Source: Dehalococcoides sp. JdFR-54 (lineage in GTDB: Bacteria > Chloroflexota > Dehalococcoidia > JdFR-54). From it: 64,000 nt of DNA. Every line of letters starts with the position of its first letter. The first letter of the stretch is position 1. Location: the NCBI GenBank assembly GCA_002011475.1, contig MTNP01000051.1, forward strand, positions 8,694 through 72,693. The letters run 5' to 3'. Positions 52,457 to 54,083 of this stretch are shown here, piece by piece. A program made the translations under genes and the position numbers. The notes under the pieces are model-generated. The model was not told the origin of the DNA. It worked only from the letters and a program-made list of their open reading frames with translations, and did no database searches.

Positions 52457-52486
52457 TTGAACAAAGACAGCCTTTGCTGGTATACT
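52457..52486 (+). promoter_or_regulatory. Extended -10 promoter of the proteasome-beta/DUF5678/retropepsin operon
   Basis: TTGAAC-N18-TATACT with TG at the extended -10 position. Confidence 0.5.
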
Positions 52487-52538
52487 TAGATTTCGGAAGA
52501 ACACGGATCTTACCTCGGGTTAGAGGGGGATAAACAGG

Positions 52539-53288
52539 GTGACTATTTGCGTAGGCCTATTGTGCAAGGGCGGAGCCGTAATAGCTTCTGACAGTCAAAG
52601 CGAATTTGAACGAGGCGTTCCGGTAAAACGCCTCGGAGCCAACAAGCTACTAAAAGGTGACACTTTCGTAGTGGCAGGTGCAGGTCTGATAGCTCATGTC
52701 AAGAATACCTTCGACACCATATCGGCAGAGATTGAGAAGGAGGTCCGGCAGCGGCAAGGACAACCTTTGAGCAAGGACGAGTGCGTAACTCTAGTCGAGA
52801 AAACTGTCACTGCGCTGCATAAGTACTACAATATCGACCGAGCGCAATTCCTCGGTGTTGACGAAAAGGGCTGGTTCGCGCCACTGCTGTTATTTGCATA
52901 TCAGGCTCCGGCGGGTGTGATACTACTCACAGTGCATCCTGAAGGTCTCGTCGAGGAGGTTGATGACTATGCGACGATAGGGTCCGGTGCTGCCTATGCA
53001 GAACTGCTTCTCAAGGCATTATACTCAAACGACCTCGACACCAACGCAGCGGTAAACATTGCAATTTACGTCATAAACGAGGTTAAGGACATTGACCCGA
53101 ACTGCGGTGGCCCGGTCCAAATAGCACTGGTTTCAGATGAGAACCTCCAACTGCTCTCACGCGACGAAATTGAGGACCGCTTGGAGTTCTTCAGGAAATC
53201 GCTTGATGCGGTCAGGAACACCCTGATACCCAAGATATTGGAGGGGAAGGTAAATGCCGAGGATATTACGAGGCTGGGAACAGGCTAA
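52539..53288 (+). CDS. Proteasome beta-subunit-like threonine protease
   Basis: (M)TICVGLLCKGGAVIASDS, K in ANKL, ATIGSG, DPNCGGPVQIALV: full Thr1/Asp17/Lys33/Ser129/Asp166-like set. Confidence 0.85.
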   Translation: MTICVGLLCKGGAVIASDSQSEFERGVPVKRLGANKLLKGDTFVVAGAGLIAHVKNTFDTISAEIEKEVRQRQGQPLSKDECVTLVEKTVTALHKYYNIDRAQFLGVDEKGWFAPLLLFAYQAPAGVILLTVHPEGLVEEVDDYATIGSGAAYAELLLKALYSNDLDTNAAVNIAIYVINEVKDIDPNCGGPVQIALVSDENLQLLSRDEIEDRLEFFRKSLDAVRNTLIPKILEGKVNAEDITRLGTG

Positions 53289-53679
53289 GCTAGTAGAAAA
53301 CGACCTCGTAGCCCGTTCCGGGGCAGCCTTCTCACGGAAGCTCTCACTAGGTGAAGAGATTAGGCGGGCTTTGACCGACTGGCCAAGTCTTCAGGACGTC
53401 CTTGCTAAAGCAAGGGTGCAGGCTGCTCGTCCCTCGGTCACACCTGGGACTGAGCTTCGACGCAGCGAAATCGAGTGGCTCGTCAGTCACTTAGAAGAAC
53501 TCAAGCAATACCAGAATCAATGGGTCGCTATTGAAGGAGACAAAGTCGTTGCTCATGGGGCAAGCGAGGAGGACGTGGATAGGCAAGCTAGGTCTCAGGG
53601 CATCATTACCCCTTTCGTTCTATACATACCGGGTGAAAACGAGGTACCTTTCATTGGGGGAATCTCCGCATGGCCGTAA
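53254..53679 (+). CDS. DUF5678-like small protein
   Basis: W...H.EEL.QY.NQWVAI.GDKVVAHG...PFVLYIP motif. Confidence 0.72.
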   Translation: MPRILRGWEQAKLVENDLVARSGAAFSRKLSLGEEIRRALTDWPSLQDVLAKARVQAARPSVTPGTELRRSEIEWLVSHLEELKQYQNQWVAIEGDKVVAHGASEEDVDRQARSQGIITPFVLYIPGENEVPFIGGISAWP

Positions 53680-54083
53680 CAGTTTCATATGACATTGTTC
53701 GTCCATATCAGCGATTCACACTTGCGACTCCACCACGGCCAGCCATTCCTGTTAGAGTTTCGTATGCTGGACGAAGTGCAGACAGACTAGCGATCATCGA
53801 TAGTGGTGCAGATAACTTTGCCGCACCCCGTAGCTTAGCTAATATCTTGGGCATAAACCTCAGCGCATTGCAGCCAAGTCTAACTCAGGGCACTGCCGGA
53901 GCTGTAAGAACCTGGCATGTTGATTGCCAGGTACAAGTTCTGGGGGTTCAGTTTCTATGCCCTGTGGCTATAGTCGACAACCCTGACATGCCGTATCTAC
54001 TCGGTCGTTACCCTTTCTTTCACGTGATACAGCTAGGTTTTCGAGAGTCTCAGCTGGAAATGTATTTCAGGTTGCAGCCCTAG
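53670..54083 (+). CDS. Retropepsin-like (clan AA) aspartic protease
   Basis: AIIDSGAD, LANILG, YLLGR.PFF motifs. Confidence 0.85.
   Translation: MAVTVSYDIVRPYQRFTLATPPRPAIPVRVSYAGRSADRLAIIDSGADNFAAPRSLANILGINLSALQPSLTQGTAGAVRTWHVDCQVQVLGVQFLCPVAIVDNPDMPYLLGRYPFFHVIQLGFRESQLEMYFRLQP

Follow-up and report, generated by a model that had tools for sequence, protein, structure and literature searches.

A proteasome homologue, a DUF5678 protein and a retropepsin form a mobile three-gene block in a Dehalococcoides genomic island

In toxin–antitoxin–chaperone (TAC) systems, a toxin–antitoxin (TA) pair is encoded together with a third proteostasis component, a SecB-like chaperone, a combination that occurs with several toxin families. 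In these systems, the dedicated chaperone recognises an extension of the antitoxin (bioRxiv 10.1101/2024.02.24.581848). Among proteasome-type proteases, a survey by Fuchs, Alva and Lupas in 2021 described 22 new homologues, including WPH (‘widespread proteasome homolog’), and found no genomic context suggestive of function for them (PMC8665760). Here, we report the analysis of a 64,000-nt stretch of DNA from Dehalococcoides sp. JdFR-54 (contig MTNP01000051.1, positions 8,694 to 72,693, hereafter the window), in which the gene for a proteasome-beta-like threonine protease (gene A) overlaps that of a DUF5678 protein (gene B), which in turn overlaps the gene for a retropepsin-like aspartic protease (gene C). 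We find that this trio is a horizontally mobile, exact three-gene block built from two independently recurring two-gene modules, one comprising the proteasome homologue and a small partner, the other the DUF5678 protein and the retropepsin. As in TAC systems, a third proteostasis component accompanies a TA-like pair. In contrast to TAC, however, this component is a protease homologue, the extension is N-terminal and the interaction is a predicted one.

Architecture of the A–B–C locus

Open reading frame (ORF) calls and Pfam matches bear out a first-pass annotation, made from the letters alone, that had placed a protease, an overlapping DUF5678-like gene and an overlapping retropepsin at this locus. 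Its features are as follows.

52457–52486, + strand: promoter-like site TTGAAC-18-TATACT with TG before the second hexamer (consensus match, weak evidence)
52539–53288, + strand: gene A, predicted propeptide-less proteasome-beta-like threonine protease, WPH-like, GTG start, 249 aa
52542–52544, + strand: Thr1 codon of gene A
53254–53679, + strand: gene B, DUF5678 protein of 141 aa, consisting of a partner segment, a linker and DUF5678
53254–53388, + strand: N-terminal segment of B, approximately residues 1–45, proposed from its position as the counterpart of a small partner ORF
53464–53658, + strand: DUF5678 domain of B, together with the two helices before it and the conserved PF(I/V)G tail (Pfam residues 81–127 correspond to 53494–53634)
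53670–54083, + strand: gene C, predicted cytoplasmic retropepsin-like aspartic protease, 137 aa, with catalytic D44-S45-G46-A47 at 53799–53810 and an LLGR motif

Genes A and B overlap by 35 nt, the start of B preceding the stop of A, and genes B and C overlap by 10 nt (ATGGCCGTAA). Reading of the sequence places a G-rich Shine–Dalgarno-like run upstream of each of the three starts. The operon had also been credited with a promoter of its own. The consensus match does exist, but three such sites were found where 1.8 are expected in shuffled sequence, which is barely above the shuffled frequency, and the site falls outside the DNA block common with a related locus (L029; block start 52518). No terminator-like site was found at the A–B–C locus. 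We also considered a programmed frameshift from B into C, as C lies in the −1 frame and a GGGGG run falls within the overlap window, yet this run is not kept in loci L011 and L029, and the natural fusion in locus L001 differs by a 5-nt gap; translational coupling is preferred.

The trio is a mobile block

The A–B–C order is found again at L011, L029 and L001 (in the last of which B and C are fused), each time in a different neighbourhood. The adjacency of the three genes, for which the first-pass annotation had already argued against chance, is therefore not accidental: the order is conserved and the genes move as a unit. Together with the window, these loci make up what we denote the window clade, with identities of 57–96% in A; the nearest relative, L011, comes from an uncultured member of the Dehalococcoidales and has an A protein 93% identical to that of the window. 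Similarity between the window DNA and L011 and L029 is confined to positions 52518–54083, the flanks being unrelated, and the start–stop overlaps are kept at both junctions, A/B and B/C. A single 283-aa protein of L001 unites the partner segment, DUF5678 and the retropepsin. Defence genes neighbour the trio: in the window, GmrSD together with a type IIG-like methylase and a HerA-like ATPase; in L029, Mrr; and in L011, a SIR2-like gene identified by eye from its GAGIS..SG.P motif. Neither inverted nor direct repeats were found flanking the trio of the window.

The DUF5678–retropepsin cassette

Protein B matches the Pfam family DUF5678 (PF18929) over residues 81–127 with an E value of 2.8e-12, and its DUF5678 region is modelled (predicted local distance difference test score, pLDDT, 86) as helix–helix–strand–strand–helix–strand followed by a disordered tail. 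Protein C matches Asp_protease_2 (PF13650) with an E value of 5e-5 and 24.4 bits, just at the cut-off of 24.3, and a profile of its family matches the protease of equine infectious anaemia virus (E 1.4e-7) as well as the proteases of feline immunodeficiency virus and human T-cell leukaemia virus, Rickettsia APRc and Ddi1. The motifs DSGA (residues 44–47) and LLGR (residues 110–113) are kept among 31 homologues, the former reading DSGAD in the family alignment. C thus shares with retroviral proteases, APRc and Ddi1 the D-S/T-G-A and G-R motifs, the single-lobe size and the profile match, and differs from them in being cytoplasmic, in having neither membrane nor ubiquitin-like domains and in being always paired with, or fused to, an upstream DUF5678.

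A full HMMER scan using the natural L001 fusion as the query returned 660 proteins of two classes, DUF5678 proteins and stand-alone retropepsins. The latter are approximately 135–143 aa long, with conserved DSGAD and LLGR. The DUF5678 proteins range from 70 to 330 aa, with variable N termini and the domain always at the extreme C terminus, ending in PF(I/V)G. The N-terminal variants include tandem domains (P0056 and P0061) and a helix–turn–helix DNA-binding domain (P0103), an arrangement that can be likened to modular antitoxins, and DUF5678 looks like a modular adaptor. Variable N-terminal regions, up to about 280 aa, were observed in P0056, P0061, P0103, P0161 and P0179. A ribbon–helix–helix fold in P0063, suspected by eye alone, is not found by Pfam and the candidate was dropped. 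Narrower searches returned less: an artificial B+C alignment retrieved only the L001 fusion, C alone only close relatives, and tblastn of the L001 fusion against plasmids gave no match.

In all eight cases inspected (window, L001, L011, L029, L030, L031 and L032, with separate and fused forms counted), a retropepsin directly follows, or is fused to, DUF5678. Single-chain fusions occur in L001 (P0045) and L030 (P0053), and in them the protease domain starts exactly at the end of the PF(I/V)G tail of DUF5678. In three of these loci (L030, L031 and L032) no proteasome homologue was seen, L031 being too short to be sure. DUF5678 and retropepsin are a cassette independent of proteasome homologues. 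B and C have the layout of a type II TA system, being two small, adjacent and co-oriented genes whose DUF5678–retropepsin pairing recurs in unrelated contexts. The likeness to MazEF and VapBC extends to the overlap of the genes, a modular antitoxin-like protein with a variable N terminus and a patchy occurrence in islands, and the type II toxins PemK and PIN themselves occur downstream of another proteasome subfamily, described below. Unlike in type II systems, however, the presumed toxin is a retropepsin, and turnover is proposed to be carried out by a self-encoded protease instead of Lon or ClpP.

The proteasome homologue

Protein A matches the Pfam Proteasome family (PF00227) with an E value of 8.4e-15 and 55 bits (cut-off 22.4). 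Because a threonine directly follows the initiator methionine, A is without a propeptide. Across 20 aligned homologues, down to 26% identity, T2, D18, K36, G49, G148-S149-G150 and D186 are invariant or nearly so, and alignment to the beta subunit of M. jannaschii equates T2 with Thr1, D18 with Asp17, K36 with Lys33, G49 with Gly47, S149 with Ser129 and D186 with Asp166. The catalytic set, previously called full, is not quite so: these six equivalents are present, but the canonical Ser169 is replaced by Cys189. The AlphaFold2 model of A (pLDDT 91) has the beta-subunit fold with additional long C-terminal helices at residues 208–234 and 240–247, and a Foldseek comparison with solved structures gave archaeal beta subunits as the best matches (E 9e-15, TM-score 0.88). 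Judged by its conserved catalytic residues and this confident model, A is plausibly an active protease. Relative to the archaeal 20S beta subunits (PDB 3h4p, 1j2q and 1pma), A has the same fold, Thr1/Asp17/Lys33 triad and Gly47, Ser129 and Asp166 equivalents, and differs in its identity of only about 20%, its lack of a propeptide, the cysteine in place of Ser169, some 45 extra C-terminal residues, the absence of a visible alpha gene and its mobile or defence context.

The profile of the A family matches both archaeal beta (E 1.4e-21) and archaeal alpha subunits (E 3.6e-15), and an NCBIfam scan likewise matched A to models of beta as well as alpha subunits, with scores that fall far short of every equivalog cut-off (55 versus 224 bits for archaeal beta, and 36 versus 191.9 bits; TIGR03634 / TIGR03690). 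HslV models score A at 15–17 bits against cut-offs of 137–158, and neither HslV nor Anbu, BPH or connectase is among the 60 best PDB profile matches of the family. We saw neither HslU nor the ATP-grasp/transglutaminase partner genes of Anbu near A, and no gene for an alpha subunit or an AAA+ unfoldase among the ORFs scanned around it. Profiles and NCBIfam scores set A apart from the families named for comparison in the first-pass annotation (HslV, Anbu, BPH and connectase) and from housekeeping beta subunits. The family has few members and a patchy distribution: 44 relatives were detected at E ≤ 1e-3 among 5.8 billion clusters. Its hosts are Dehalococcoidales, Acidobacteriota, Alphaproteobacteria and Bacteroidota among bacteria, and Bathyarchaeia, Nitrososphaera and Methanobacteriota among archaea; it was not found in viral contigs, and PADLOC gave no significant match for A, B or C. 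The sub-cut-off score, the lack of a visible alpha partner, the small and patchy family and a guanine–cytosine (GC) content of 0.51 in the region, against about 0.61 in the core genome, support the conclusion that A is not a housekeeping proteasome subunit. Two archaeal homologues, L022:2066–2751 and L028:762–1608 (Desulfurococcales and Thermoproteales), are split over two to three reading frames and are probable pseudogenes or assembly errors.

By description, A resembles WPH, which also lacks a propeptide, is similar to both alpha and beta subunits, has a long C-terminal helix, occurs in bacteria and archaea and has no associated AAA+ partner (PMC8665760). The A family, likened to WPH by description only, differs in its small downstream partner, its TA-like cassettes and its transposon carriage. 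It was probably catalogued in 2021, without any context.

A small partner accompanies most A homologues

We surveyed the neighbourhoods of A homologues in 24 non-redundant, intact loci and found a small cognate ORF directly 3′ of the proteasome homologue in 20 of them. In the clade 42–48% identical to A, the next ORF encodes 42–51 aa with the motif W..Y..KEPL..VI(R/K) and usually begins 20–35 nt before the A homologue ends; in the clade 31–35% identical, it encodes 53–74 aa with the motif L..M....YI.RF. Hidden Markov models (HMMs) of the partners, searched against six-frame translations of all loci, matched only directly downstream of A homologues, finding the partner in seven of seven non-redundant loci of one clade and nine of nine of the other and recovering three ORFs missed by simple ORF calling (L010, L017 and L020). 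The partner types appear to co-vary with their protease. A recognisable partner was not found in the remaining four of the 24 loci (L009, L014, L015 and L027, the last of which has only an unrelated 53-aa ORF). A motif common to all small partners was sought and not accepted, hhalign being not significant and suggestive MAFFT columns not counting as evidence. In a locus from Minisyncoccia (candidate phyla radiation), an overlapping 447-aa ORF (L023:580–1923) follows the A homologue in place of a small partner.

The window clade has no separate partner ORF. Gene B begins with the same −35-nt overlap that the stand-alone partners have in L002 and L007, its product has a tryptophan at position 8/9, and KLSLGEEIRRAL near its N terminus resembles KEPLSKVIRKIV at similar spacing. 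Judging from this position, the DUF5678 protein of the window clade seems to have absorbed the partner as its N-terminal segment, and B would then link both proteases.

The effector, by contrast, is the exception in the A family, as the DUF5678–retropepsin cassette was tallied in only 4 of the 24 loci, all of the window clade. The expectation that an effector would be a regular neighbour of A homologues consequently failed for this family, whose conserved neighbours are the 40–75-aa partner ORF and, often, a transposase.

The protease–partner pair travels with transposons

In the 31–35% clade, terminal inverted repeats beginning GGTAGTGCCTCAGTTTGA enclose the A homologue and its partner together with an IS1-like DDE transposase (Pfam DDE_Tnp_IS1). 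These elements measure 2.5–3.3 kb, each is flanked by an 8-bp direct repeat, and four independent insertions are known from the loci surveyed.

L026:3619–6170: IS1-like element, 2552 bp, target duplication GTCTGTGG
L025:3631–6263: IS1-like element, 2633 bp, target duplication GGCGATCG
L018:3616–6540: IS1-like element, 2925 bp, target duplication CAACGCGA
L015:3886–7234: IS1-like element, 3349 bp, target duplication CGCCGCCC

In the 42–48% clade, an IS6-like transposase (zinc ribbon plus DDE_Tnp_IS240, 372–430 aa) adjoins the partner on either strand in two bacterial and two archaeal loci, the transposases being 39–61% identical to one another.

L002:5893–7185, − strand: IS6-like transposase
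L003:2871–4049: IS6-like transposase
L012:4909–6039, − strand: IS6-like transposase
L013:4966–6084: IS6-like transposase

No clear terminal repeats were found around the IS6-like elements of this clade. A review of the IS6 family mentions one member in Dehalococcoides with an unidentified passenger gene. These observations show that the protease–partner pair is mobile-element cargo in both bacteria and archaea.

A second proteasome operon in the same island

The window contains another operon with proteasome homologues, at 38.7–40.9 kb.

38740–40882, − strand: comparison operon, a non-orthologous module
40223–40882, − strand: inactive proteasome paralogue of 219 aa, without Thr1 (MGN...)
39466–40194, − strand: paralogue of 242 aa with Thr1
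39171–39440, − strand: 89-aa protein without DUF5678
38740–39165, − strand: PIN toxin

The first-pass annotation had read A–B–C as repeating the layout of this operon. That likeness holds loosely, but two proteasome paralogues, an 89-aa protein without DUF5678 and a PIN toxin stand there. A is 26% identical to the 242-aa paralogue over only 78 residues and has no detectable similarity to the 219-aa paralogue. The sequences therefore assign the two operons to different subfamilies with different subunit composition; they are not paralogous copies, and the idea of two instances of one recurrent module does not hold.

The other subfamily has its own regularities. The inactive and active paralogues are adjacent in 25 of 31 related metagenomic loci (L033–L063), and a contig end cuts four of the six exceptions. 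Downstream of the pair, at spacings of −4 to +22 nt, we found three arrangements: a protein of about 60 aa with the motif GTSLDLPP.FVNMSPVEPAY (L037, L042, L045 and L050); a protein of 117–119 aa followed by a PemK/MazF toxin (L035, L040 and L041; Pfam E ~1e-11); and, as in the window, PIN toxins (L053 and L063). The protein of the second arrangement, at 106–119 aa, also occurs in L038, L059, L051 and L052, with no recognised toxin seen after it, and the neighbours seen across the loci of this subfamily include McrBC and BrxL. A motif common to the intervening proteins could not be demonstrated, and the longer antitoxin-like proteins escape the HMM of this subfamily's stand-alone partner. Chance can hardly account for three toxin families downstream of a single conserved protease pair, and this variety independently supports the earlier proposal that proteasome-like proteases are linked to TA-like pairs, here PemK/MazF or PIN behind a small protein.

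Genomic surroundings

The core genome has a GC content of 0.60–0.63, whereas between about 26 and 56.4 kb the values are lower and form a mosaic (0.46–0.59), with 0.46 around the 38.7–40.9 kb operon and 0.51 around A–B–C. The island ends at a tyrosine integrase (55304–56404, − strand) adjoining tRNA-Gly(CCC) (56531–56605), past which lie housekeeping genes for a phosphoenolpyruvate-utilising enzyme, an HD phosphohydrolase, DnaG and RpoD. Its defence-type genes encode a McrB-like AAA protein, a type IIG-like methylase, a HerA-like ATPase and GmrSD, the last directly upstream of A. By eye, the island also holds an IS110-like transposase. Between the cassette and the integrase lies an orphan 259-aa ORF (54323–55102, + strand), outside the block common to related loci, with no Pfam, NCBIfam or PADLOC match. 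A sequence resembling a tRNA 3′ end (GGTTCGAATCCTATTCGGTTTCACCA; 54150–54175, − strand), 67 nt past gene C, differs from the tRNA-Gly at 56.5 kb and was recognised by neither ARAGORN nor Rfam; it may be left over from a former integration site. In its core portion, the window contains a molybdenum cofactor riboswitch (18585–18715, + strand; Rfam RF01055, 71.8 bits).

Proposed function and alternatives

We propose, with a probability of roughly 0.4, that the cassette is a TA-like pair with its own protease, in which B neutralises C and is itself docked to, and turned over by, A. Retropepsins are active only as dimers. The DUF5678 domain and the conserved C-terminal tail of B would hold the retropepsin inactive, and the N-terminal segment would dock B onto a ring or oligomer of A, which would turn B over. 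Should B no longer be replenished, through phage-induced shut-off or loss of the element, or should A be activated, the retropepsin would be freed and might cleave cellular or phage proteins, leading to growth stop or aborted infection. Gating of the pair by the protease, or a protease cascade, the two modes of action that the first-pass annotation had put forward, would both be conceivable here.

Several observations weigh against this proposal. The N terminus of B, which would carry the docking segment, did not align significantly with either of the two partner clades in hhalign (E 0.11–0.36), and profile comparison detected no similarity between the partner types of different clades. The model of DUF5678 found no resembling solved fold (best E 1.6) and offers no hint of an inhibitor role, and the toxicity of the retropepsin is assumed by analogy. 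As most A homologues are accompanied by a partner and not by an effector, the pair must serve some purpose that does not depend on the retropepsin. Finally, the L001 trio is flanked by purine-synthesis genes and has no defence context.

A wider version of the proposal is possible, if doubtful. Proteasome homologues would be mobile modules of a protease and a docking peptide, repeatedly recruited to control toxins of diverse kinds (the retropepsin of the window clade, and PIN and MazF in the other subfamily) and carried elsewhere as IS1- or IS6-type cargo, and would make up a new class of tripartite TA–protease systems acting in abortive infection or element addiction.

Other explanations deserve consideration. 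The retropepsin could instead act in maturation, processing B or a B–C polyprotein and thereby freeing a partner peptide that regulates or caps A, which would be the real effector. The natural single chains of DUF5678 and retropepsin (P0045 and P0053) recall self-processing retroviral polyproteins, the PF(I/V)G tail stops exactly at the start of their protease domain, and the partner is elsewhere a free peptide of 40–75 aa. DUF5678–retropepsin pairs exist, however, without an A homologue or a partner segment, so that partner processing is not their general role, and a cleavage site between the partner segment and DUF5678 is not identifiable; we regard maturation as unlikely.

The locus could also comprise two addiction pairs in tandem, A as a potentially harmful protease with its partner as inhibitor, helping to maintain mobile elements, and DUF5678 with the retropepsin, in which the fusion merely saves genes and the proteases do not communicate. 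TA-like cargo is common in transposon contexts; A and its partner alone are carried by IS1-like transposons, with four independent insertions marked by 8-bp target duplications, and also adjoin IS6-like transposases, and each module occurs alone. Yet the fusion of partner segment and DUF5678 persists among homologues with 57–96% identity in A and even becomes a triple fusion in L001, which argues for a physical link, and this explanation comes after maturation in our ranking, as another improbable one.

Chance or neutral juxtaposition, in which a defence island gathers small cassettes and the overlaps reflect compaction only, would suit a mosaic island of unrelated systems with differing GC content, all the more as TA-like cassettes insert promiscuously. 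Against it stand the same gene order in four loci with unrelated flanks, the exact three-gene boundaries of the common DNA block and the preservation of both start–stop overlaps, which together make it very improbable. Housekeeping protein quality control by a minimal proteasome is scarcely tenable, for although the active site is intact and the fold is that of a beta subunit, A scores far under the equivalog cut-offs (55 versus 224 bits), no alpha-subunit or unfoldase gene was seen around it, its family is small and patchy (44 relatives among 5.8 billion clusters), its GC content is below that of the core genome and its relatives are carried by mobile elements.

Implications

Our literature search found no paper linking DUF5678, prokaryotic retropepsins or proteasome homologues to TA or defence systems. 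The contexts reported here, namely a conserved partner ORF, fusion or close linkage to TA-like cassettes in which the effector is likely a retropepsin, PIN or MazF, and carriage by transposons, turn proteins of unknown function into testable candidates. They suggest that proteasome-type proteases have been recruited into prokaryotic conflict or addiction systems, and offer the first hypothesis of what DUF5678, and the small cytoplasmic retropepsins that abound in bacteria and archaea, may do.

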